The notes: generated by a model from the sequence alone, not told the origin. DNA of 64,000 bases from Candidatus Babeliales bacterium (GCA_963762115.1 CAVXJH010000006.1:64001-128000); one strand, 5' to 3'. Shown: positions 2,825 through 22,297, counted from the stretch's first letter. Made by a program: numbers and translations.

Positions 2825-3202
2825 TTAAGAATTCTTCAATGAAGATGCAAGACTATACGATCTCTTTTTTTTAGATGGGTCCGCTACAACAAAAAACTCA
2901 TTTTCCGTCCATTGTTGACATAATGCACGCGCTGTTCTTGGTTGAATATGGAATGCTTTTTCAACATCATGCGCGGTGATAAATTTTTTCTTCTTAAAAA
3001 ATTGAACTGCTTTTCGCTGACGAACATCAAAATAAGGTAACTTCTTAGAAGCATTAGAGAGATCACTTTGCTCAACAATTTTAGCAACTTCTTCTAATGT
3101 TAAACGATTACCTGACATGCGAGTAGAATAATAAATAGATTCGATACGAGCGATTTTTTTTAAGTGCGCAAGCGTGACTGGATCATCGTTATCTTCAAAC
3201 AT
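2825..3202 (-). CDS. Fic-family-derived protein lacking the catalytic core (N-terminal helix plus winged HTH)
   Basis: RIESIYYSTRMSGNRLTLEEV resembles the Fic N-terminal region; C-terminal RQRKAVQFF...ITAHDVEKAF...RTAR...RSYSL is wHTH-like; no HPFxxGNGR motif. Confidence 0.6.
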   Translation of the reverse strand: MFEDNDDPVTLAHLKKIARIESIYYSTRMSGNRLTLEEVAKIVEQSDLSNASKKLPYFDVRQRKAVQFFKKKKFITAHDVEKAFHIQPRTARALCQQWTENEFFVVADPSKKKRSYSLASSLKNS

Positions 3203-8734: not shown

Positions 8735-9190
8735 TTAATGATCCTTTGCATGCGTCCAATTATCTTCAGAATACAAAATTGATTTTGAGATTAATTCAAG
8801 TGCCTTAGCATGACGAGGAATCATATTGTCTGGAAGCTTGTCCAACGGAAACCATTCTAATGCCGCATTCTTGTGCGGTTCTTTATTCTGTATTTCACCT
8901 TGCCACGAACGAATAACAAAAAATAACGCAATGCATGGAGTTTGATCAACGCCATAAAAATGCATAACATGAGCAAATTGTGCATCTTGCTCAGCAATAG
9001 TTATGCCAATTTCTTCAAAAAGTTCTCGCGCAAGAGCTTGTGTTGCTGATTCATCTTGTTCTATTTTTCCACCGAGCAATCCATAATAATTTGAAAACCA
9101 TTCAGTGTTAATGCGGTGCCCCAACAAAACTTCGTTGTTATTATTAACAATTATTGCCAGCACATACGGAAACAACATTTGAAGTAACAT
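8735..9190 (-). CDS. NUDIX hydrolase
   Basis: Nudix box GGKIEQDESATQALARELFEEIG. Confidence 0.9.
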   Translation of the reverse strand: MLLQMLFPYVLAIIVNNNNEVLLGHRINTEWFSNYYGLLGGKIEQDESATQALARELFEEIGITIAEQDAQFAHVMHFYGVDQTPCIALFFVIRSWQGEIQNKEPHKNAALEWFPLDKLPDNMIPRHAKALELISKSILYSEDNWTHAKDH

Positions 9191-9209
9191 AACCCGTAAT
9201 TCTTTCTTT

Positions 9210-9464
9210 CTAATCAGTAATAGCAAGATAACAGCAAAAACATCCAAGACAAGGCGCCATCACACAGATACTTGCCTTCTCTGTCAACCAATAACAATCT
9301 TCATCTCCCCAGCAGTTACCACAATCTTTTTGATGATTCATGGAAACAGTTGAAGGTCTTTGTTTAGGTTGAATCAATTCTTTTTGTTCTTCTTTATTCA
9401 TGCCTGATAATGACATACATAAAGGTGAAATAATCATACAGATTAAAAATAGTTTCTTTTGCAT
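9210..9464 (-). CDS. Small secreted protein with Cys-rich hydrophobic tail
   Basis: Signal LSG|MN; tail ICVMAPCLGCFCCYLAITD; AAAGGA RBS. Confidence 0.6.
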   Translation of the reverse strand: MQKKLFLICMIISPLCMSLSGMNKEEQKELIQPKQRPSTVSMNHQKDCGNCWGDEDCYWLTEKASICVMAPCLGCFCCYLAITD

Positions 9465-9650
9465 AACATTCCTTTTTTTTACTCACCTTAAATCAATGTT
9501 TTTTTTAAGATTCTAGATTAACAAATTGTGTTATGTAATACTATTTTTTCTAGTTTTGCGCAGGGCACACAAGCTTATTGCATTTTTTTATACCGCCAAG
9601 TACAATTGCACAACAATATAAACTTCACATCACACAAGGAATTTTTTGTA

Positions 9651-11123
9651 ATGAAAAAACTACTATTTTTTATATTTTGTTTAACAATGATAGCTCAAAA
9701 AAATCTCCATTCTATGGAGAAATTTACTGAAGAATCCGAAGATAAATCTGTTGAAATGGTAAACTTAGTTGACGTACTACCACATGTTGCTGGCGATGAA
9801 TTTTTAACTCGTATCGTACAATTAGCAACACATTTAAATACACCAATTGAATTTAATAAAGAGAGAACATCATGCTTTCAATTTGGCCCACAGCAAATTC
9901 TCGATAAAGGCTCACATCAAGTTACTTTATATTCTAGAAATGAATGGGCTCCTTCATGCAATTTAAATCCCGCACAAATTGTATTTGTAGACCAAACAGA
10001 TAAAAATCATTGCTCATTTAACGTTTAATGTTGGCACAGAGATGTTACTCAATTTGGCATTGATAGATATGATGAAACTAAATATAGAATCGATGATGAT
10101 GCACAAAAGAAACGCTTTATGGCATCTACCTCGCTTGAAACAAAAACACCTTTTTTTGATGGCCCTAGCGATGATGGCATATTTATTATTGCAGGAAATT
10201 CAAAACATAAAGAGGAGGTAACTAAAGAAAAAGTAGAAGATACCACTGATATAGCAGAAATACCACAAGAACAAGGATGCTTCTCACGTATATTTAGTTC
10301 CAACAAAAAAGAGAACCCTATCCCCATTCTAAGCCGTCAAAAAGTTTATGAATATTATATAGGAAAATTTAATCAGAAAAGTACCAATCTATACAGACAA
10401 AATATTTATGACAATAAAGAAAACAATGAATTTAATGTTACATCGCCTAGAATTATAGGCACTCTTTCAGCTCTTGCGCTTTGCAAAACAAGAAATTGGA
10501 ATCCAAAAGATCCTACCGATAACAAAAATCGTTTTGCACTTGCAGATGATAAGGGAATATCAATCTATGAAATAAAAGAAGCTGTTAAACAATCTAAGCG
10601 TCATAAAAAAAATAAAGCTGTGATGTCTGTACAACGCATTGGGTTTGGAGAATTATTCAAGCAAAATGAAGATATTATTAATTCCACCCGACGAAGAATT
10701 ATGAATAGCGACGCTACCATAATAAAGCTTAGTTTTATAACACCAAAAACTTTGTTGGGGCTTACTCATTCAGGAAAATTATTTAGTTTTGCATTAGATA
10801 CACAATTCAACACCATTACATCTGCACCACACACTATTAAAAATAAAGAAGGACAAGAATTAGTTGTGCATAATTTTGCTCTTAATCCTTGCAAACCTAA
10901 TCAGGTTGTTCTTTGTACAAAAGAAGGCAACATTCTTTATTTGAATCTTAAACATTGTATGAAACCAGCTCAGGGAAAAAAAGCAAAACTTTTGATGAGT
11001 GTAGAAAAACTTCCTGATTCAATGTGGTTTTATGATACAAGACTCTGCTTAGGAAGTTATTTTGCACTTGAAACTGAAAATTATACCTTAGCTGATTTAG
11101 ATTTAAGACTGGAAAAAAAATAA
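9651..11123 (+). pseudogene. Paralog of 11181..12500 interrupted by a single in-frame TAA at 10026-10028
   Basis: GTT TAA TGT aligns with GTT CAA TGT (V-Q-C) in the paralog; the frame continues into the ORF starting at 10119. Confidence 0.8.
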
Positions 11124-11180
11124 AAATATTTTAAAAATTTTGCAAAACGTCTTCAGCATGCTCTAAAGGAATTTCTTGTA

Positions 11181-12500
11181 ATGAAAAAACTACTATTTTT
11201 TATATTTTGTTTAACAATAATAGCTCAAAAAAATCTCCATTCTATGGAAAAATTCATTGAAGAATCCGAAGTTAAACCTTTCGAAATGATAAACTTAGTT
11301 GACGCGCTACCCAATGTCGAAGGCGATGCATTATTAATTCGAGTCATACAATTAGCCACACATTCAGATGCTAAAATCGAATTTAGCAAAGATAAAACAT
11401 CATGCTTTCAATTTGGCCCACAGCAAATCTCTGGTAAAAAATCAAATAGAGTTACCTTATACTCAGATGAAGAATGGACTCCTTCAATCAACTTAAACTC
11501 CACGCAAATCGAACAAGATGAAGAAGACTATTTATTTACTGTTCAATGTTACCACGAAAATGTTACTCAATTTGGCATTATTGGCATTGATAGATATATT
11601 AAAACTAAATATAGAATTGATGATGATGCACAAGAAAAGCGCTTTATGGCTTCAGCATCACTTGAAACAAGAAAACCGTTCTTTGATGGCCCTACCAATG
11701 ACATATTTATTATTGCAGGAAATTCAAAAGAAATTAAAGAATATGAATATTATATAGGAAAATTTAATTCGAAAAGTACCGATCTATACAAACAAGATAT
11801 TAATGACATTTTAAAAGAAAATAATAAGTTTAATGTTACATCGCCTAGAATTATAGGAACTCTTTCAGCACTTGCGCTTTGTAAAACAAGAAATTGGAAT
11901 CCTAATGATCCCACCGATAACAAAAATCGTTTTGCACTTGCAGATGATCGTGGAATATCAATCTATGAAATAGAAGAAGCTGTTGAACAATCTAAGGATA
12001 AAGCTGCTATGTCAGTGCAACAAATTGGTTTTGGCCTATCTATAATAAAGAAAAAAAACATAACAGAAAAAGATACATGTATTGAAGTTCCTGTATTACT
12101 AAAAAAAATTAGCTTTATAACACCAAAAACATTATTAGGGCTTTCAGAGTCAGGCAGATTATTTAGTATCGCCTTAGACAAAAAATGGGGTACAATTACT
12201 TTAGAACCGCAAACAATTAAAAACAATCAAGGAGAAATATTAGATTTTCATACCTTTGCACTCAATCCTTGCAAACCTCATCAAGTTGTTCTGTGCACTA
12301 GGGGATGCCAAATCCTTTATTTAAATCTTAAAAATTGTTTAAACCCTGACGAAAAAAAGGTAAGATTTTTGATGCCAACAAAAAGACTCCCTGATTCAAT
12401 GTGGTTTTATAACACCAGACTTTGCTTAGGGAATTATTCTGCTATTAAAACTGAAAATTATACCTTAGCTGATTTAGATTTAAGACTGGAAAAAGATTAG
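11181..12500 (+). CDS. Secreted hypothetical protein, possibly beta-propeller; tandem paralog
   Basis: Signal LHS|ME; high identity with the upstream copy. Confidence 0.8.
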   Translation: MKKLLFFIFCLTIIAQKNLHSMEKFIEESEVKPFEMINLVDALPNVEGDALLIRVIQLATHSDAKIEFSKDKTSCFQFGPQQISGKKSNRVTLYSDEEWTPSINLNSTQIEQDEEDYLFTVQCYHENVTQFGIIGIDRYIKTKYRIDDDAQEKRFMASASLETRKPFFDGPTNDIFIIAGNSKEIKEYEYYIGKFNSKSTDLYKQDINDILKENNKFNVTSPRIIGTLSALALCKTRNWNPNDPTDNKNRFALADDRGISIYEIEEAVEQSKDKAAMSVQQIGFGLSIIKKKNITEKDTCIEVPVLLKKISFITPKTLLGLSESGRLFSIALDKKWGTITLEPQTIKNNQGEILDFHTFALNPCKPHQVVLCTRGCQILYLNLKNCLNPDEKKVRFLMPTKRLPDSMWFYNTRLCLGNYSAIKTENYTLADLDLRLEKD

Positions 12501-12728: not shown

Positions 12729-12787
12729 CTAAAACTTCCAACACATTTCAATTTCGCCGCCAAGATCACCACGTTCATCGCGAATGC
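12729..12787 (-). repeat. Copy 4 of the tamB 3' end (59 bp, most diverged)
   Basis: Encodes IRDERGDLGGEIEMCWKF*; 7 differences from 17348-17406. Confidence 0.9.
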
Positions 12788-12832
12788 TAGAAATTGTCCT
12801 TTAAAAAAACTCAGGTAAAATGAATAGTAATG

Positions 12833-15421
12833 TTATTTTTTTTCAAAAACAGAAAGACCTGATAAACCTTCTGCGCTAAGATTATGAGGATGGACACGTT
12901 GCGCCGACAAACTATTTATTAAATTATTCATTTTTTCTGTTGTTAACTTTTTTTCTATTTTAACTTGATAATGAGATGGAGAGTCGTCATCAAGAAATAT
13001 ACCTTTTCTAATTCTCATTTTTGTACTCAAAACACTGAGCATTGTTTGTGCTTCATCGATAGCAGGTTTTGTTATTTCCGGCGATAGAATATCTCTATTT
13101 TCTTCTGCTAGTTTCCGCAAACAAACAATTTGATCACCTCCATTGCGAAGAACTTCATGAGTTATAAATTTTTTATGAGCCTTACACGAATCAACTATCG
13201 CCCGTAAAGAATCAATATAAAGACCCGTAGTCTGCTCAATTGCTCTATTGTTTAATTCCTCTTTGGTAGATTTTGCAAACTGCATGCGAGGAAGCCTTGT
13301 TATAAAATCTATTCCTTGTTGAGGGTGATCAAATGAATCTATAATTTTTTTGTTATCTTCAAGCGCCGAAGTTTGATCTAACTGTTCAATTTCTCCTTGC
13401 GAAAATAATTTCATAAGATCGGCAGAGGAATGTATTTCAGCTAAGGCGCCTTTTGCTCTAACAATTTCTCTTACTCTTTGCTTAACTCGTTGTTTAAATT
13501 TTGTTACTTTTTTTTCACCATACATTCTTTCAGCTTCACTATCAATAAGACTAACAAGTTTTCGTGGGCGATTACTGCAAAGATCTTTATTAATGCTTTG
13601 TTTTAAGGCAACAATTGTTGCTTCTACTGAAAGAATGTTGTCCTGATTACTTTCAGATATTCTTAATCTGTGTTCAATATCAGTTTTTTGTATTTTTTTG
13701 AGAGCAACAAGATTCCTGACATTTTTACTTAGCATATGATTAAACGTGTCAATCGGAAAAGAATTATCAATGGTAATCAAATATTTAGTTGCTTCATCAT
13801 TAAATCGACTTACCTGCACATCTAGATCTTTACAATTTGAAACTCGATCGACAAACCAATCCACAAGATTTTTCTTAATAAGATCATGAATTTTTTCTAA
13901 CGTCGACACATCATACCCACTTAAAAAATCATCATTTATAACACTTTCAAAGGGTTCATTTGCATATATAGGTGGTTTTATATGTTTCTCGACAAATGCT
14001 TCAGCAATCACTTCTGGTTTTTCATTTTCAATATAATCTTCAATTCTACAAGTAAGTAATCTTTGCTCGAAAGAAGTAAATGTTGCAAATATCGGATGTG
14101 TTTTCAAAAAGTTCAAATCTGCTTTTCTACCATTTTCTCGAGCAGCTTCCAATGAAAGCTTATAAAGAAGCTGTTCAAACGTAGGTTCAGCAAGAGTATT
14201 AAATTCAGTAAATTTTACGCCATCATCCTTATGAGTATAAAAATCTGAATCAACAAGATGATTATTATCCAAAGATTGACTATAAAGAGTTGGATCAGAC
14301 CGCATATGAAAAATTTTTTTTACTTTTCCATCAAAAGAAACATTATTGAGTGCATTGTTATGGATAACTATGAGCTTATTTCCGGGCGCTATCGCCACTA
14401 CATCGTCATATTGTTTACGCAGTGATTCCTGCTTAACATCAAACAAAAATCCTTCTTTTTCATCTTTTTTTAAAAAAATAAATTTACTGTCCGGTGAAAT
14501 AATACTTTTACTCACGGGCATCTCAACTGCAATTTTTTTTGGCACAAAAAAATCTGCACACCGTGAATCAGGAATATTTTGATCCCATTTATAGACTTCA
14601 CCTTTGCTATTAACTGAAACAAAATATGAACCATTTGGTGCACATGACAGATGAGTTATAGGATCTTTTTCAACTCCTTTCAAGAAAAATTTCTTCCATT
14701 TACCTTTTCTTGCAAAAGGATTATCGTATTCAATAGTTATTCCCTCAATAGAACCATCAGCATAACCAACAAAAAGAACGTTATTATCAGCCGAAAAAGT
14801 AAGAGAATGAAACAAAGCAGCATCAACCTTTCTTCCTGTAATACTGGGAAATAAATGTTGGTTGAGAATAATAAATAGCTGGGTATCACTAGCAACTGCT
14901 ATGCAACTATTATCTTGCGTTGAAGTAATATATTTAATTTTTCCCTGACAAGGATTGTTTCTACAGGTTAGTATTCTCCCATCTAAAATACCAATAGTAT
15001 CAAAAGGCTCATCATACCACATGCAAAGTTTCGCATTATACCATTGAACATCAACATGGCCAGGTACGAATGCTCGACATTTCCATGTTGGCTGCGTATG
15101 AGCTTTCCAATATTGCAATAAGCAATTAGGTGAAATCTTCAGATGTTCTAATTGCTCAAACATTTCTTCAATTACTTGCTTTGACGCAAGAGGATCTTTG
15201 GTATCAATATTATCTTTAACGTTATTTGCTATTGCACCTAAACAAATAGCTCGAAGACTTTTCATAAAACCTGAATTGGGATAAAAATGATGGTAATCTT
15301 TTCTACTATCAAATTTTTCTTGAGGAACCGTTTTTTCAGGTTCAGACATCCCAAAAAGCATGTAAGGAATAATGGCAGCAGTCATCAACAGAATAATTAA
15401 AAAGTGCGAGCATTTTTTCAT
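12833..15421 (-). CDS. Secreted WD40-like beta-propeller protein with BC-box-like motif and helical C-terminus
   Basis: Signal LFG|MS; KSLRAICLGAI; WD-like ITHLSCAPNGSYFVSVNSKGEVYKWD. Confidence 0.75.
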   Translation of the reverse strand: MKKCSHFLIILLMTAAIIPYMLFGMSEPEKTVPQEKFDSRKDYHHFYPNSGFMKSLRAICLGAIANNVKDNIDTKDPLASKQVIEEMFEQLEHLKISPNCLLQYWKAHTQPTWKCRAFVPGHVDVQWYNAKLCMWYDEPFDTIGILDGRILTCRNNPCQGKIKYITSTQDNSCIAVASDTQLFIILNQHLFPSITGRKVDAALFHSLTFSADNNVLFVGYADGSIEGITIEYDNPFARKGKWKKFFLKGVEKDPITHLSCAPNGSYFVSVNSKGEVYKWDQNIPDSRCADFFVPKKIAVEMPVSKSIISPDSKFIFLKKDEKEGFLFDVKQESLRKQYDDVVAIAPGNKLIVIHNNALNNVSFDGKVKKIFHMRSDPTLYSQSLDNNHLVDSDFYTHKDDGVKFTEFNTLAEPTFEQLLYKLSLEAARENGRKADLNFLKTHPIFATFTSFEQRLLTCRIEDYIENEKPEVIAEAFVEKHIKPPIYANEPFESVINDDFLSGYDVSTLEKIHDLIKKNLVDWFVDRVSNCKDLDVQVSRFNDEATKYLITIDNSFPIDTFNHMLSKNVRNLVALKKIQKTDIEHRLRISESNQDNILSVEATIVALKQSINKDLCSNRPRKLVSLIDSEAERMYGEKKVTKFKQRVKQRVREIVRAKGALAEIHSSADLMKLFSQGEIEQLDQTSALEDNKKIIDSFDHPQQGIDFITRLPRMQFAKSTKEELNNRAIEQTTGLYIDSLRAIVDSCKAHKKFITHEVLRNGGDQIVCLRKLAEENRDILSPEITKPAIDEAQTMLSVLSTKMRIRKGIFLDDDSPSHYQVKIEKKLTTEKMNNLINSLSAQRVHPHNLSAEGLSGLSVFEKK

Positions 15422-15564
15422 ATAATAATTTTTTCATTCTTTAAAGATATCTTTAATCAGTTTTTTAATAACAATATGCACACTTGTAATTATGAATAAA
15501 AAGACTAAAAATGCAATCGCGATACTAGAAAATATACCGTTTTAGGGATTTTTTAAGAACAGTG

Positions 15565-15694
15565 CTAAAATTTCCAACGCATTTCAATTTCACCGCCAAG
15601 GTCACCACGTTCATCGCGAATGCCGCGAATGGCAATATCATCAGCAAAGAAATATTCGACCCCCCACATAAATCATTGATATGCTTATTACCTA
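15565..15694 (-). repeat. Copy 3 of the tamB 3' end (96 bp) plus shared arm
   Basis: 6 differences from tamB, all synonymous; flanked by CCACATAAATCATTGATATGCTTATTACCTA. Confidence 0.95.
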
Positions 15695-15748
15695 TTTGAT
15701 ACCATACAAATCAAATAAAAATTCTCTTTAAAAAAAAGGATTTAAAAA

Positions 15749-16408
15749 ATGCAAACTATAGCAAAAAACTTACATACTTTTTTGTTAATAACAATATCTT
15801 TTTTTACGATAAACTACCTACAATCCATGCAACAGGAAGCACTATTAAGAAATGAACTTTCAACACTTGAAAAAAAATTATTCGATCTACAAACAGCTCT
15901 CAACACTTCTATAATACCTTCAACCCCAAAAAAACAGCCGATTCATCTTGTCACTCCAGGAGCATTAAATTTTGAAAATATACCTTACTATGTTTCAGGC
16001 GCAGGATCATTACCAAGCTTTACAAATACTTTTATAAAAAATATTGAAGATGAATTAATAATTTCATTCAAAAAAACATCTAACATAGAAGAAATAGGTT
16101 CATCAAACATAGGATTTTATTTTAGTTCTCTAATTACTTCAAGATTTACTAATTTAATTAAAGGTACTGTAACTAAATTGCAACAAGCAAGAGCTAGTCA
16201 ACCTAATAACATTATTCTTATAATGTTTACCGGAGAAAAAAAATCACTTATTAAAAAATATGAAGATTCAAAAGAGGCTGAAGAGTTAACAAAAACACAT
16301 ATATATCCTTTTATATTTCAGTCGAGTAAAGAAAATATCTTCGATAGAGATTTTAACAAAAAAAAATTAATAAAAGTCATTGAAAGCCTTGAGTTACTCG
16401 GAACATGA
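15749..16408 (+). CDS. Secreted hypothetical protein (cassette cargo)
   Basis: AAAGGA RBS; signal LQS|MQ; N-terminal Leu heptads. Confidence 0.7.
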   Translation: MQTIAKNLHTFLLITISFFTINYLQSMQQEALLRNELSTLEKKLFDLQTALNTSIIPSTPKKQPIHLVTPGALNFENIPYYVSGAGSLPSFTNTFIKNIEDELIISFKKTSNIEEIGSSNIGFYFSSLITSRFTNLIKGTVTKLQQARASQPNNIILIMFTGEKKSLIKKYEDSKEAEELTKTHIYPFIFQSSKENIFDRDFNKKKLIKVIESLELLGT

Positions 16409-16415
16409 TAGTTTT

Positions 16416-16544
16416 CTAAAACTTCCACCGCATTTCAATTTCACCACCAAGATCACCGCGTTCATCGCGAATGCCGCGAATGGCAATATCATCAGCAAAG
16501 AAATATTCAACCTCCACATAAATTATTGATATGCTTATTACCTA
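16416..16544 (-). repeat. Copy 2 of the tamB 3' end (96 bp) plus shared arm
   Basis: 2 differences from tamB, both synonymous; flanked by CCACATAAATTATTGATATGCTTATTACCTA. Confidence 0.95.
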
Positions 16545-16576
16545 AGCAATTAGAAAATGTTATAGCGAAAATCACA

Positions 16577-17005
16577 TCACTCGGAGCATGATCCTTTAAA
16601 ATTAATATTCTCCAACATTCTCAACGTTGCAAAATATTCATAAATTCGAGAACAAGTCTCCTTAGCTGTTTCTTCATTATAATCATGTGTTGTTGCATTT
16701 CTTGCTTCAGAAATATCTAAGAGTTTTTTTGTTTCTTCTTGAGTTATAATATTTAATAAAAAACATTCACGAAAAATTGCTTTTGGTGATGCAAGCTCGA
16801 CGGAATGAAGTTCTTTAATATACTGCTGAAGAAACTTCCAACACATTTCATAGCAAATTTCAAAATGCTTAACCAATGAAGCGACAGCATTTTCTAATTC
16901 ATCTGTTGCGGCATTAGCAGCATATTTACTTGAAAATTTTAAACTCCGTTCCAATGCACTCAATGATTTTAAAAACTTTTGGTGTGCAAAAACTAACTTT
17001 TCCAC
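16577..17005 (-). CDS. HEPN / nucleotidyltransferase substrate-binding protein (HI0074-like toxin)
   Basis: FEICYEMCWK, SPKAIFRE and RNATTH (Rx4H) motifs; overlaps the MNT gene. Confidence 0.9.
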   Translation of the reverse strand: MEKLVFAHQKFLKSLSALERSLKFSSKYAANAATDELENAVASLVKHFEICYEMCWKFLQQYIKELHSVELASPKAIFRECFLLNIITQEETKKLLDISEARNATTHDYNEETAKETCSRIYEYFATLRMLENINFKGSCSE

Positions 17006-17283
17006 AAAATTCCCTCTTTCATAATATTTTCTTTTAATGCAAGAGGAATTCTATTAAAATCAACAACATCAACTTTCTGAGGAATATTAAGGGCATCTAT
17101 CATACTAACTATTTGACCTTTTTGCGTCATTGACATTGGACTTTTTGCATCTATTGCAATATCAATATCAGAAGTCTCTGCATAATCTCCCCGAGCACGA
17201 GACCCAAAAAGATATATTTTTGCTTCTGGAAAAAATATAGTAATAACCTTGATAATTCGTTCTTTTTGCTCTTTATTTGGCAT
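16993..17283 (-). CDS. Minimal nucleotidyltransferase (MNT) antitoxin
   Basis: YLFGSRARGD...SDIDI motif; KVDVVD. Confidence 0.92.
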   Translation of the reverse strand: MPNKEQKERIIKVITIFFPEAKIYLFGSRARGDYAETSDIDIAIDAKSPMSMTQKGQIVSMIDALNIPQKVDVVDFNRIPLALKENIMKEGILWKS

Positions 17284-17347
17284 ATTTTTTTCTAACGTAT
17301 TTGTTAAATTGATATATCATTAGCTCTATAACAATAAAGTAATTTTT

Positions 17348-20086
17348 CTAAAACTTCCACCGCATTTCAATTTCACCACCCAGGTCACCGCGTTCATCGC
17401 GAATGCCGCGAATGGCAATATCATCAGCAAAGAAATATTCAACTTCAAGCTTTATATCTTCGGGCAAACTAAAGTTTCTTTGAATTGTGCCATGCAGTTG
17501 ATCATTCACTTCAATTTCAATCGCGCCACGAAAGCCGCCACGGCCTTGAGGGTCAAAAAATTTCGGCACAAAACGAATGTGCTTCAGAGGACCAAGAAGG
17601 TTTTTGAAATACCGCTCTAGTTTTGAAGATGATTGCTCAGGACCAAAGAGAACATTCTGCATACTTTGCATGATAACTGAAGGTACCACTAAACTTAACG
17701 AACCCTCTTCTGAACCAGCCAATAATAACGTGATTATTTGTTCCTCGGTGAGGGGCGGGGTTGATTCAAAAGAAATATGTGGATTTTGCAAAGAACCATC
17801 ACAACGCATAACAATATGATATTTTCGAATCATGCCTTTTGCTACCAAGTCAACAAGAGGATCAAAAAGTTGATTAGGAAGAAAATAAATTGTCGCATTG
17901 GTGATTGTTAATGGTTTATAAGGAAATGCCAAAACACCTCGCTCTAAGTTTAATGCCCCTGAAACACGTGGGTTTTGTGATGTTCCTTGCACGGCAATGT
18001 TTAATCGCGCATTTGCCTCTAAGAATGATGTTTTTACTTGTAATGAATCTTTAGTTTGCACCGTAAGGTCAATAGCACATTGATGTTGATCATCAGCGAC
18101 TTTTGACCGCGATAAAAATGAAAAGTTTTGTTGTTGCGCTACTAATGAAAAAATATTTTTTTTCATATATGCCTTATCGATGATCACTGAACCTTGCAAA
18201 GCAGGCATACTATTTTTTACGTGCGTCCAAATAATATGCCCTGAGAGCAAGGCAAAAAAATCTTTATCAAGAGCCAATAATGTTTTTTGCAAAGAACAGG
18301 GAAAATACATATAAGAAATAGTTGCATCAGAATCAAATTCAATAATTGCTCGCTTTGTTTCAAGAGCACCGCGATCAAGTTCAAGCCTAGCTTGATGTAT
18401 TACCATTTTCCTTGTTGTAACATCAAAAGTAAGTGAACTTTGTAGCCCACGAATAAGATTATATATTCCTGGAATGCGAATATTACTGTTTTCTGTTGCA
18501 ATCTTTAAGTCTAGCTTTTCAGAGGCTAACTCACCTGAAAATAAAAATTTTCCCTCACCAGGAATCTTATTGGCACATACAAAATCAACACAATTTTGTA
18601 GCAACTGATACTCAATAACTCCTTGAAATTGGTGCCAATCTTCTTTTTTTGTCGTTAATGAAAAGAGATTTTTGGCAGCAGAATCCTGATAATGCATTTG
18701 CAGCAATGTTTGCGTTGGCATCAAATTAATTGCTACATCAAAAGGACTTTCGTTAATCTTACCTGATGCGTTATAATGACAATTCGACCCTTGTAAAATT
18801 CCTTGAGCATCAATCGGCATATTTTTTTCATCATGCTCAGCATGCACAGCAAAAGCAACAGAACATGAACCACTCAAACTAAAATCGGCTTGCAAAGAAA
18901 GACCATGCGGCTCAATTTTATATGATGCCTGAGAAATAAGTAGGGGAGAATTATTGGAAAAATGCACATTTCCTTGCCCTGTTTCAGGATTGATTGACCA
19001 TATGCCCTCAATATTTTTTTGTTCATTACTACCTACACAAAAATCGCCAAACCATTTTTGATTATCAAGCGTAAAACTACTCTGTAATGATCCTAGAATG
19101 TTTCCCACGTAAGGAATATCATTAATTTCTAAATTTCCCTGAATAGCAAGACAATCATTATACGTAATATGCGCTTTCACGTTACCAATACCATCAAGCG
19201 TAGAAGCATCGGGGAGTATATTTTTTTGTAAAAAGCTCAGTGGCGTACTCATAACAAGATCACCGGCAACATTTTTTTTATCAGTTAGTTGTATGTCATT
19301 TACCCCAATAAAAAAAGAATCTTCGTGGTTATGCAACACAAAAGATCCTTGCGTTTCTTGCCAGTTACCCTGATAAGAACAATATTGTTTTGTCACCTCT
19401 AAATCAGGAAAGAGTACATTTCCTTGCACCTGCAGCGTAACACAAGGATCTTCGATATTTTTTACAAAAATTTTTGTAAGAAACGACCAATCTTTGCAAA
19501 ACTTTTTATGTCCTTGTTGTATTGCACCATCAATTGCCGAAAGGTCAATTTTTATATTTTTATTATTCATATAGGTATGTAAATTAAATTGAGTTACATA
19601 ATGAACATCATGCTCATAATCATCTAAGCCAAAATGTCCTTTTGTTACATGCAATTCTTGCAATCCTACAGGAAATCCTTCTGCGCCTCCCATCAAGCGC
19701 AGTAAATGATGAACAATGCCAATATCACAACCTTTTAATCGCGATTGTGCGTTCACTTGCTCTAATACAACGGTTAAATTAAATCCTAATGTCACCAAAA
19801 AATTTAACCAAGAAAAACTAAGATTAAATTTTTTTGCATGCCATTCCCACTCACCCTTTTCATCTGATAGTGTTGAAACATTATGTAACTCAATCTCACC
19901 ACCAAGAATATCAATTTTTGATACCGTACCATTCAAACAACAAGAAAATGTTTCTGCAAAAATAGTTTTCAAATTTTTTTCTAAAAATTTTTTAAACGCA
20001 TCATCATGCTCAAGCAAATAAAAAAATAATTTTATACCAAGAAAAATAATCAAAAACAGCTGCAAAAAAAACCTAATTTTCCTCAT
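17348..20086 (-). CDS. tamB: Translocation and assembly module TamB (DUF490) family protein
   Basis: N-terminal TM anchor; beta-rich body; C-terminal GTSQNPRVSG...FESTPPLTEEQIITLLL...EMRWKF; ATGA overlap with the upstream gene. Confidence 0.8.
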   Translation of the reverse strand: MRKIRFFLQLFLIIFLGIKLFFYLLEHDDAFKKFLEKNLKTIFAETFSCCLNGTVSKIDILGGEIELHNVSTLSDEKGEWEWHAKKFNLSFSWLNFLVTLGFNLTVVLEQVNAQSRLKGCDIGIVHHLLRLMGGAEGFPVGLQELHVTKGHFGLDDYEHDVHYVTQFNLHTYMNNKNIKIDLSAIDGAIQQGHKKFCKDWSFLTKIFVKNIEDPCVTLQVQGNVLFPDLEVTKQYCSYQGNWQETQGSFVLHNHEDSFFIGVNDIQLTDKKNVAGDLVMSTPLSFLQKNILPDASTLDGIGNVKAHITYNDCLAIQGNLEINDIPYVGNILGSLQSSFTLDNQKWFGDFCVGSNEQKNIEGIWSINPETGQGNVHFSNNSPLLISQASYKIEPHGLSLQADFSLSGSCSVAFAVHAEHDEKNMPIDAQGILQGSNCHYNASGKINESPFDVAINLMPTQTLLQMHYQDSAAKNLFSLTTKKEDWHQFQGVIEYQLLQNCVDFVCANKIPGEGKFLFSGELASEKLDLKIATENSNIRIPGIYNLIRGLQSSLTFDVTTRKMVIHQARLELDRGALETKRAIIEFDSDATISYMYFPCSLQKTLLALDKDFFALLSGHIIWTHVKNSMPALQGSVIIDKAYMKKNIFSLVAQQQNFSFLSRSKVADDQHQCAIDLTVQTKDSLQVKTSFLEANARLNIAVQGTSQNPRVSGALNLERGVLAFPYKPLTITNATIYFLPNQLFDPLVDLVAKGMIRKYHIVMRCDGSLQNPHISFESTPPLTEEQIITLLLAGSEEGSLSLVVPSVIMQSMQNVLFGPEQSSSKLERYFKNLLGPLKHIRFVPKFFDPQGRGGFRGAIEIEVNDQLHGTIQRNFSLPEDIKLEVEYFFADDIAIRGIRDERGDLGGEIEMRWKF

Positions 20087-20622
20087 GAAAGACATTTCCA
20101 CACAGAATCATAGCGATATATACGCAGAAAAGAAATATGAGAAATTGGTGATGTTATGGCATACGTCAATTTTTTCTCTGCATCCACCAAATATAAAGTG
20201 CCAGCAGAAATTGAACCATCGGGTGAAAATACCACCGTATTATTTTTGAAGGTGATACCCTTATTGATACGTGTTTGTGGATGTGATGGCGGACCATAAC
20301 AGTTTGGCACAGAGCCAAATTGTATACCAAAAGGTAATGTTTGTTTATAGTTGTCAGAAAAATAGCTTGATGTCCGTTCATCAAAGGTCAATTTTTGCTC
20401 AGTTTGCATGACACATGCTCGCTGTTGAAAATAACGAAACAGCACCGCCAATTTTTCAACTTCAGCATGCATGAGCTGCTTTCGCAGTAGATTGCTATGA
20501 GATAATGATAAGGTAATTATAAGCACTAACAATGCTAATACTATACCAATTTGTATCAGTAAAAATCCTTCAACGTGGTTTTGCTTATAATTCTTCTTGC
20601 TCACCCTCAATCGTTGCAACAC
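20083..20622 (-). CDS. Prepilin-like minor pseudopilin (GspH/FimT-like)
   Basis: G|FLLIQ followed by a hydrophobic helix; VVFSPDGSISAGTLYL. Confidence 0.7.
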   Translation of the reverse strand: MLQRLRVSKKNYKQNHVEGFLLIQIGIVLALLVLIITLSLSHSNLLRKQLMHAEVEKLAVLFRYFQQRACVMQTEQKLTFDERTSSYFSDNYKQTLPFGIQFGSVPNCYGPPSHPQTRINKGITFKNNTVVFSPDGSISAGTLYLVDAEKKLTYAITSPISHISFLRIYRYDSVWKCLS

Positions 20623-22297
20623 GGAGCACCTCTTCCGGCGTTGTTATTCCCTCTTTAATTTTTCTCACACCATCTTGCACTAATAAGGTCATACCTTCTG
20701 ATACAGCTTGTTTACGAATAACAGCCATATCAGCCTTTGCAATAGTTAATTTTGCAATCTCATTAGACATTTCCATGATTTCAAAAATTGCCACACGACC
20801 TTTATAACCACCAACACATTCGTCACAACCAACAGCTTTATAAAAAATAATGGAAGCGGCTTGTAATTTAGGTATGCCAAGTAATTTAAGCACATCATCA
20901 TCAGGCTTATAAGGCTGCTTTGATTTATCACATAATTTACGCACAAGTCGTTGCGCTAATACTGAGACAATCGAAGAAGCAATCAAAAATGGCTCAATGC
21001 CCATATCAATCAAACGCGTAATTGTTGCCGGAGCATTATTAGTGTGAATGGTACTTAATACTAAGTGACCTGTTAATGCCGCTTGAATTGCAATTTGCGC
21101 TGTTTCTTGGTCACGCGTTTCACCAATCATCACAATATCAGGATCTTGTCGCAATATAGCTCGTAATGCGGCAGCAAAGGTGAGACCAACTTTTGCGTTC
21201 ACGGCAACTTGAGCTACACCAGCCATTTGATACTCAACGGGATCTTCAACGGTGATAAGATTAACTTCAGGTCGATTCAACTTACTTACAATTGAATACA
21301 GCGTTGAGGTTTTACCAGAACCCGTTGGACCAGAAACTAAAATAATGCCATTTGAACGGGCAGTGCTTTTCATAATAACGTCAAAATCACGCGGGCTAAA
21401 ACCTAAATCCTGCAGTTTCCCAAATGTTTTTGATTTATCAAGTAAACGCATTACAATTCGTTCGCCAAAATTTACCGGTAAAACGTTTACACGAATATCA
21501 ATTGTTTTGTCAGCAACTTTTATTTGAATTCTACCATCTTGCGGCAATCTTTTTTCAGCAATGTTCATGTGTGCCATAATTTTTATACGAGAAACCAAAG
21601 CACCTTGCACCCGTTTTGGCGGCGTGAACGCTGGGTACATGATACCATCAACACGATAACGAACTCGTACTTCTTTTTCATACGGTTCAATATGAATATC
21701 CGAAGCACCACGCTTTACCGCCTGCACAAAAATATGATTCACCAACTTAATAATTGGTGCCTCACCGGCCATAGCTAAAATATCTTTTTCCCCAATCTCC
21801 TCAAATTCCATCGTTTCGGGACCACCACCTTTTTCCTCTTCAAGCTCTTCAATCATTTGCTTGGTTCCTTCAAGAGGATAATAACGATTAATACCGTCAA
21901 TAATTGTTTGCGGTGTAGCAAGGGCAATAGTGGCTGTACCACCTAACAACATATTTAATTCATCAAGAGGTTGATAATAATTAGGATTAGCCGTTAACAG
22001 GGTGATTGTTGTATCAAGCATTATTGGCATAACAATATTTTGACGCAAAAACTTTAAAGGAATTTTGGCCAATAAAGCAGGGTCGGCCATTTTCTCAGTA
22101 ACTTTATCAATAATTTGATAACCTGTTTGCTCTGAATATGCTCGAGCAATATCTTCTGCCGTAACATACTGTTGTCCAATTAAACAATCAGTAAACGGAA
22201 GACCTGTTTCACTCACACGAAGATGACACTCCTTGAGCTGCTCATCGTTTACTATTCCCTTATTGAGTAGAATTTCTTCTATAGTTTTTTTTGCCAT
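20585..22297 (-). CDS. gspE: Type II secretion/type IV pilus assembly ATPase (GspE/PilB)
   Basis: ASDIHIEP, LPQDGR, GPTGSGKT, LRQDPD, GHLVLSTIHTN and GYKGR motifs. Confidence 0.9.
   Translation of the reverse strand: MAKKTIEEILLNKGIVNDEQLKECHLRVSETGLPFTDCLIGQQYVTAEDIARAYSEQTGYQIIDKVTEKMADPALLAKIPLKFLRQNIVMPIMLDTTITLLTANPNYYQPLDELNMLLGGTATIALATPQTIIDGINRYYPLEGTKQMIEELEEEKGGGPETMEFEEIGEKDILAMAGEAPIIKLVNHIFVQAVKRGASDIHIEPYEKEVRVRYRVDGIMYPAFTPPKRVQGALVSRIKIMAHMNIAEKRLPQDGRIQIKVADKTIDIRVNVLPVNFGERIVMRLLDKSKTFGKLQDLGFSPRDFDVIMKSTARSNGIILVSGPTGSGKTSTLYSIVSKLNRPEVNLITVEDPVEYQMAGVAQVAVNAKVGLTFAAALRAILRQDPDIVMIGETRDQETAQIAIQAALTGHLVLSTIHTNNAPATITRLIDMGIEPFLIASSIVSVLAQRLVRKLCDKSKQPYKPDDDVLKLLGIPKLQAASIIFYKAVGCDECVGGYKGRVAIFEIMEMSNEIAKLTIAKADMAVIRKQAVSEGMTLLVQDGVRKIKEGITTPEEVLRVATIEGEQEEL

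Follow-up and report, generated by a model that had tools for sequence, protein, structure and literature searches.

Displaced tamB ends form a polar array without a recombinase in a Babeliales genome that carries similar scars behind other genes

The Babeliales are bacteria with small genomes and a presumed life within protists. In one of these bacteria, three blocks of accessory genes lie 3′ of tamB, and each is followed by a leftover copy of the last 20-33 codons of tamB. We were interested in how such blocks came to lie behind a gene that is still intact, and whether the process belongs to tamB. The locus is part of a window of 64,000 nucleotides (Candidatus Babeliales bacterium, GCA_963762115.1 CAVXJH010000006.1:64001-128000), which is the whole stretch that was analysed; positions without a contig name count from its first letter. 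The genome holding the window is called G000, a sister species G001, a related metagenome contig L061 and two sequencing runs X1 and X2.

The array behind tamB

The features of the locus are listed in Table 1. The units are spaced at 932, 851 and 2836 bp, and the coordinates and spacings of the displaced tails agreed with those of a first-pass annotation of the same DNA. The outward rise in divergence that it reported was recomputed with the same values. In BLAST, copies 1-3 matched the tamB tail with E values of 1e-44 to 6e-15, and no further match was found beyond the array in the whole 1.53-Mb G000 genome. Over the 59 bp common to all copies, copies 1, 2 and 3 differ from tamB at 2, 5 and 7 positions, respectively.

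Table 1. Features of the tamB locus, with positions in the window
Feature	Position	Strand	Evidence or remark
tamB, intact, 917 aa	17348..20101	-	PF04357, E 1.5e-18; working tail today is its final 96-99 bp
MNT nucleotidyltransferase, 96 aa, cargo of unit 1	16993..17283	-	PF18765/PF01909
HEPN/HI0074-type protein, 142 aa, RNATTHDY motif, cargo of unit 1	16577..17005	-	PF08780
33-bp block common to units 1 and 2 only	16512..16544	-	inherited junction or att-like arm; first codon may be tail
Displaced tamB tail, copy 1, 2/96 differences	16416..16511	-	BLAST
Orphan protein, 219 aa, hydrophobic N-terminus, cargo of unit 2	15749..16408	+	antisense to tamB
Second copy of shared block, 34 bp	15661..15694	-	sequence comparison
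Displaced tamB tail, copy 2, 6/96 differences	15565..15660	-	in run X2, tamB sequence leads into its downstream flank
Beta-propeller-containing protein, 862 aa, cargo of unit 3	12833..15421	-	PF23414/WD40, under cut-off
Displaced tamB tail, copy 3, 59 bp, 7 differences, without shared block	12729..12787	-	BLAST
Two paralogous accessory genes, one split into two ORFs, same variable slot	9528..12500	+	absent from L061
84-aa ORF and NUDIX gene	8735..9464	-	similarity to empty-site contig L061 resumes here

The first-pass annotation had described 14 of 15 tail differences as third-position synonymous changes and the other as R to C in the distal copy. These counts were correct, but the 15 differences collapse to only 9 variable sites, 8 of which are synonymous (P=2.6e-5 against 21% synonymous sites). 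The synonymous excess, found in the comparison of copies that the annotation had proposed, supports its view that each copy was once a working tamB end. The site patterns among the tails are mosaic, as expected for alleles of a recombining population. Homology was said to halt at the stop codon, which is generally so, except that copy 1 runs 4 bp further. At its other end, copy 1 probably starts one codon earlier, giving 99 bp with GAA changed to GAG. Two features had been overlooked: copies 1 and 2 have 33-34 further upstream bases in common that are not tamB sequence, and the variable region behind tamB extends to about 9470. No tail was detected behind the paralogous genes at 9528..12500, and the best local scores for a fourth tail near 9470 were only 24-31.

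The cargo had been named as an MNT-HEPN pair, a secreted orphan and a secreted beta-propeller. Pfam supported the classes, the beta-propeller under the cut-off, whereas "secreted" rests on N-termini read by eye. The MNT-HEPN family scores lay under their cut-offs, just so for MntA (59.3 against 60) and HI0074 (55.1 against 55.8), with HepT at 26.6 against 60. The patterns GS-x10-DxD and R-x4-H-x-Y are visible in the two proteins and are what we take to be the motifs of MntA/HepT (type VII) toxin-antitoxin pairs. For the orphan protein the search returned only the protein itself, with no homolog and no atlas match. A Pfam scan found no recombinase in the array, as the annotation had held. Directly upstream of tamB, genes for a PilB/GspE ATPase and a ComGD-like pilin were observed (20083-22297), a possible uptake or secretion pilus. 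A Fic-like gene fragment lies at 2825-3202, and its full-length relative sits directly behind tamB in G001.

The tamB locus in relatives and sequencing runs

When the tail was sought across the Babelota, the last 40 residues of TamB had a match in 204 relatives among 261 genomes of the phylum, and this match was single in 202. No tail copy was present behind tamB in 20/20 relatives (3-20 kb each), whose tamB is at most 51% identical. G078, from another family, has a displaced tamB tail of 173 bp, interrupted by a premature stop, 2.6 kb downstream and behind two antisense genes (C2:204371-207074, L185/L187); no integrase-like ORF was read by eye between tamB and this tail, which arose independently. 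G131 has two 91%-identical tamB ends, and this double match is not interpretable because the ends lie on separate contigs.

The sole metagenome match, L061, is 79% identical over 7.7 kb and comes from a relative, not the same species. In L061, tamB is followed by what remains of the 84-aa ORF and by the NUDIX gene (here 9464-8735), with no direct repeat. By this gene order L061 is an empty tamB site, relative to which the window carries about 7.9 kb more, including the two paralogous genes beyond copy 3. From X2, which represents a sediment strain, a 204-bp contig aligned to 15500-15657, from which it departs at 10 letters and by one gap; its loose end, 17 letters long, matched only tamB 17441-17457. 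An 883-bp tamB contig of X2, with 39 differences and similar depth, overlaps the position of the loose end. The five tail differences listed for the X2 contig are third-position and synonymous by reading. The loose end and the overlapping contig together indicate that tamB sequence runs into the flank of copy 2 in this strain. X2 may carry an intermediate allele without the two inner units; a longer displaced tail would also fit so short a contig. Five X1 contigs, covering the orphan gene, the block-HEPN junction and tamB, are identical to the window; none spans a tail, and the run is perhaps not independent of the G000 assembly. The run contigs were compared with 15500-20200, i.e. with the two inner units and tamB. 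No circle or joint was found among these assembled, low-depth contigs.

Three natural tamB alleles were thus distinguished, namely empty (L061), apparently intermediate (X2) and three-deep (G000), in agreement with the earlier claim that units were added beside tamB, and relatives vary in content. In most of the distant relatives listed (L034-L038, L043), tamB is followed by a conserved block of an unknown, an RluA-like and an MgtE-like gene. This block sits on contig C5 in G000, and the tamB end is therefore also a rearrangement breakpoint in the genus.

The gene order in G001 is tamB, a Fic-like gene and then MNT-HEPN, without tail or shared block. The MNT protein of unit 1 is 84% identical to the product of the gene two places behind tamB, and the HEPN protein 76% to that of the gene three places behind. 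The units had been described as arranged newest first. This holds for the order of insertion and does not date the cargo, because the MNT-HEPN pair already stands behind tamB in G001 without a tail copy.

Gene-tail scars, cargo and recombination genes across the genome

In G000, gene ends were scanned for displaced copies, and an unbiased census took in direct repeats 25-260 bp long whose copies lie no more than 12 kb apart. It excluded the final 12 kb of C5, ORFs shorter than 100 aa and colinear paralogs. The end of C5 (165000-177811) appears plastid-like, with accD-, cysA-, ycf3- and minD-like ORFs and inverted repeats, and is probably contamination. The census gave 107 repeats, of which 47 were coding-coding or mixed, 34 intergenic, and 26 had one coding and one non-coding copy. 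The last class comprised 15 tails with a downstream copy (12 genes), 1 tail with an upstream copy, 5 heads with an upstream copy and 5 mid-gene repeats, three of which end 13-22 bp before a stop. Counted by gene, downstream tails exceed upstream tails by 12 to 1 (P=0.002). Six hand additions (the three near-stop mid-gene cases, tamB copy 1 and two cases caught by the filters) brought the set to 21 displaced tails of 29-196 bp behind 17 genes. Relative to the stop codon, 8/21 end exactly, 14/21 within 6 bp and 19/21 within 15 bp. Judged from their proteins, the host genes presumably include priA, rsmG, maf, truA, aspS, murB, rodA, holA, gpsA and sbcD. Apart from tamB copies 1 and 2, the 5′ junction flanks of the 21 copies had no common motif above background. 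A replication-strand bias of the scars was considered and rejected (11/16 host genes leading against 679/1236 overall, P=0.32).

Pooled over all tails, 84 synonymous and 73 non-synonymous differences and 9 indels were counted. The resulting pN/pS was 0.22, or 0.26 without tamB, values that may be biased downward by local alignment, which trims decayed ends. This suggests that the tails diverged largely as working alleles. The synonymous excess rejects a pN/pS of 0.5 (P=1e-4) and does not reject 0.35 (P=0.06). Outside tamB, the copies may have been born identical and the working copy refreshed by allele exchange.

The same census over 1.2 of 1.34 Mb of G001 found 7 downstream tails, two of them doubtful, among 17 such repeats, at other genes than in G000. 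Three distant relatives, G003, G037 and G022, each had 1 strict downstream tail in the 400 kb sampled per genome. Strict scars thus occur at about 10 per Mb in G000, 6 in G001 and 2.5 in the three distant samples. A mirror-image scar was noticed in G022, where the 5′ head of a glycyl-tRNA-synthetase-like gene has a displaced copy 7.5 kb upstream, 193 bp long and 98% identical (C1:79008-79200 and 86485-86677).

Thirteen of the 17 host genes have a match in G001. For 7/13, the next gene in G001 is one that G000 has beyond the scar; for 5/13, including tamB, G001 has the cargo ortholog 1-3 genes downstream of the matching host gene, with no scar listed. The G001 ortholog of the beta-propeller (36%) sits behind sbcD and not tamB, indicating that cargo can also change slot. 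At the maf locus (G000 C3:145468-148581), two 86%-identical antisense genes belong to units that each open with a maf tail, and three tails are present. Similar stacked units of tail and cargo, again at 86% identity, lie at C7:81308-82202. Because the maf unit is stacked twice, stacking makes paralogs. Elsewhere in G000, at C6:349246-361607, about 12 paralogous predicted secreted proteins are encoded in an array with conserved stop-to-start junctions.

G000 has two tyrosine recombinase matches (PF00589, frames of 299 and 319 aa) among core genes, which were read as XerC/D. Two large serine recombinases adjoin tRNA genes (C3:125844-127379 and C5:162729-164261; Gln, Glu) and were rejected as the tamB enzyme for that reason. 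A look for tyrosine or serine recombinases elsewhere in the genome, as the first-pass annotation had proposed, gave these matches. The C5 serine recombinase stands at the head of an island that has repeated blocks and, in decayed form, the start of a second recombinase. A XerCD/dif origin of the 33-bp block was rejected, since its sequence differs from the likely dif sites (G000 C3:241006; G001 C1:721026, near the GC-skew maximum). The dif pattern used was loose and gave about 100 matches. Three further ideas were dropped: the block as promoter or terminator (counts at chance level), a reverse transcriptase route (RVT_1 had no match, at a genome completeness of 95%) and a tRNA or tmRNA target (none within the window).

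G000 encodes ComEC, DprA, RecA, Ku and LigD polymerase, and a 523-aa frame of the ChlI family was labelled ComM from its size. From the presence of these genes we infer natural competence. Ku was found in 17/61 genomes and DprA in 55/61. Ku is not sufficient for scars, because three Ku-positive distant genomes have 1 strict tail per 400 kb.

Origin of the array

The array is real, chronologically ordered and not specific to tamB. The first-pass annotation had proposed a capture system anchored on tamB; against this stand the scar at 16 other genes, the variable tail length at tamB and the single tail match in 202/204 relatives. The genome-wide scar makes ordinary recombination with DNA of related strains likely, rather than a dedicated tamB capture machine. 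With a probability of about 0.6, we consider that the array consists of fragments of a gene end plus cargo, captured from related strains by host recombination without an integrase and then reshuffled through the repeats. A donor fragment would comprise the tamB end and that strain's downstream genes, and would probably enter by natural transformation. Its homology would reach only to the stop codon, because the sequence beyond is strain-specific. In one route, the donor would be closed into a circle by Ku/LigD or a ligase and integrated by a single crossover in the tail; in the other, it would be anchored in tamB and then joined illegitimately back inside the resident tail. By either route the gene would stay whole, the new block would adjoin it, and the old tail with its cargo would be pushed outward. 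The tail repeats would then permit RecA-type stacking, loss and cargo exchange.

Host recombination is favoured by the polarity and synonymous bias of the scars, by the other alleles seen in relatives and by the genes for uptake, recombination and end joining that the genome encodes. Against it, copies 1 and 2 have a common start and the 33-bp block but unrelated cargo, as att sites would. Cargo exchange between tail repeats would explain how both inherited one junction, so that this reading needs a cargo swap that was not observed. Moreover, a symmetric process predicts equal numbers of heads and tails, whereas the census gave 15 tails and 5 heads (P=0.02). The tails are below the length of an efficient crossover substrate, and it must therefore be assumed that short tails are the survivors. 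We only tentatively extend the reading to a genome-wide, integrase-free capture, in which any conserved gene end would serve as a landing site, sister strains would supply tail plus cargo as end-joined circles that stack newest-first, and the stacking of diverged alleles would be a main source of this lineage's tandem arrays of host-directed secreted proteins.

Several described systems resemble parts of this picture. Insertion with long target duplication, as covered in the cited portions of Furuta et al. 2010 (PMC2853133), involves a variable duplication of >30 bp, an insert of <20 kb without mobility genes and a single-copy empty allele. It was found mostly in naturally competent species; restriction-modification cargo was a criterion, DNA breakage the explanation, and the mechanism was left unresolved. 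Here the duplications are 59-99 bp at tamB and 29-196 bp genome-wide, the tamB units are 0.75-2.8 kb without mobility genes in the Pfam scan, and an empty single-copy allele is given by L061 and, for the two inner units, by X2. By contrast, the cargo here is a putative MNT-HEPN toxin-antitoxin pair, an orphan and a beta-propeller, the last two predicted secreted (that of other loci was read by eye), and the duplications are allelic coding tails ending at stops, up to three deep, at 17 loci.

In Escherichia coli, according to the part of PMC3240628 used here, 56/60 recombinants of one-anchor DNA had duplications of 109-950 bp that arose by recircularisation and a single crossover, in an engineered conjugation assay and at about 4e-9. 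The same part states that classical one-anchor recombination yields deletions, not duplications, which counts against host recombination here. Common to both cases is a partial duplication, of variable length, of the homologous end around foreign DNA, made in E. coli by host enzymes only. Natural arrays are found here, whereas that part of the paper demonstrates none. Sequential displacement of T6SS effector-immunity modules in Vibrio cholerae, and displacement of rhs C-termini, have been attributed to homology-facilitated illegitimate recombination, followed by spread through homologous recombination (PMC5361080, as excerpted). Those arrays are likewise integrase-less and integron-like, with the newest module at the anchor. 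There, the excerpts describe a variable anchor end that is replaced while immunity genes are kept; here, the end of a conserved housekeeping gene is duplicated. Homology-facilitated illegitimate recombination would find competence and RecA genes in G000, by gene presence only, but is expected to delete recipient DNA, whereas a duplication was seen. Integrons are also polar, chronologically ordered series of gene cassettes; here, no IntI-like gene was found and the repeats are tamB coding sequence.

It is unlikely that site-specific integrative elements accreted in tandem at the tamB 3′ end, each with a replacement tail, and decayed to CIME-like remnants, the 33-bp block being an attR arm and the integrase lost or acting in trans. 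Tandem accretion of CIMEs, IMEs and ICEs occurs at the 3′ ends of rpsI, rpmG, fda and rplL, with decay most advanced in the elements at the greatest distance from the target, in the sections of PMC7563491 drawn on here. The polarity of the array fits, as do its tandem units at a coding 3′ end, the oldest outermost, and integrase-less members. Purifying selection would be expected on replacement tails too, and the main support comes from the identical boundary and upstream block of copies 1 and 2. Such accretion, however, depends on a cognate integrase, on att arms and on a crossover point that is fixed. The only candidate arm here is the 33-bp block, beside copies 1 and 2 only; it occurred in none of 260 relatives at up to 3 mismatches, nor in viral contigs or a species-genome collection, and no tamB tail was present on viral contigs. 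The 17 target genes are unrelated and have no common motif. The crossover point is not fixed, with tails of 96-99 and 59 bp (G000) and 173 bp (G078) at tamB and of 54 and 76 bp at rodA, although later erosion could blur it. Neither the locus nor the rest of the genome nor the relatives examined yielded a cognate integrase, the genome's own recombinases being XerC/D-like or tRNA-adjoining, and MNT-HEPN stands behind tamB in G001 without tail or block.

A dedicated, sequence-independent process of the lineage, by which some unrecognised recombinase, transposase or break-repair route would place DNA at stop codons while copying the 30-200 bp upstream of them, seems quite improbable. The tight stop-codon ends, the strong 3′ polarity, the scar densities in G000 and G001 against the distant samples, and the five IS110 copies of G000 would suit it. 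A fresh duplication, however, gives identical copies that decay neutrally, yet synonymous differences separate the displaced tamB copies from one another; the cargo is often a relative's allele at the same slot, and no candidate enzyme accompanies the scars. Tandem duplication of tail and downstream gene within the genome, with one cargo copy then replaced or decayed, is very improbable and for tamB largely refuted. The repeating units at maf and on C7 and the many tandem paralogs of this genome speak for it, but the cargo of the tamB units is unrelated, homology breaks off at the stop codon even where the tails are 94-98% identical, and the displaced copies show synonymous bias. That the assembly joined several strain haplotypes at the conserved tail is hardly credible: strain alleles with different content behind tamB and the two G131 ends exist, and G000 has 3% contamination, but the copies are truncated and decayed (R to C, an extra G, indels at other loci) with unique flanks, the X1 contigs match with 0 differences, though bridging no tail, and G078 has the same anatomy independently.

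No earlier report of the tail-scar pattern in this lineage was found in the mostly open-access literature that was searched, and the excerpted text of a TM6 genome review (PMC4776705) has no mention of competence, recombination or tandem. The 21 datable scars and three natural alleles of one locus bear on the mechanism of integrase-less long target duplication, and link it directly to the formation of paralogs. Displaced tails with synonymous bias offer a simple scan by which recently gained effector and defence genes can be located and ordered. The scars also give a testable role to the competence and end-joining genes of these bacteria.
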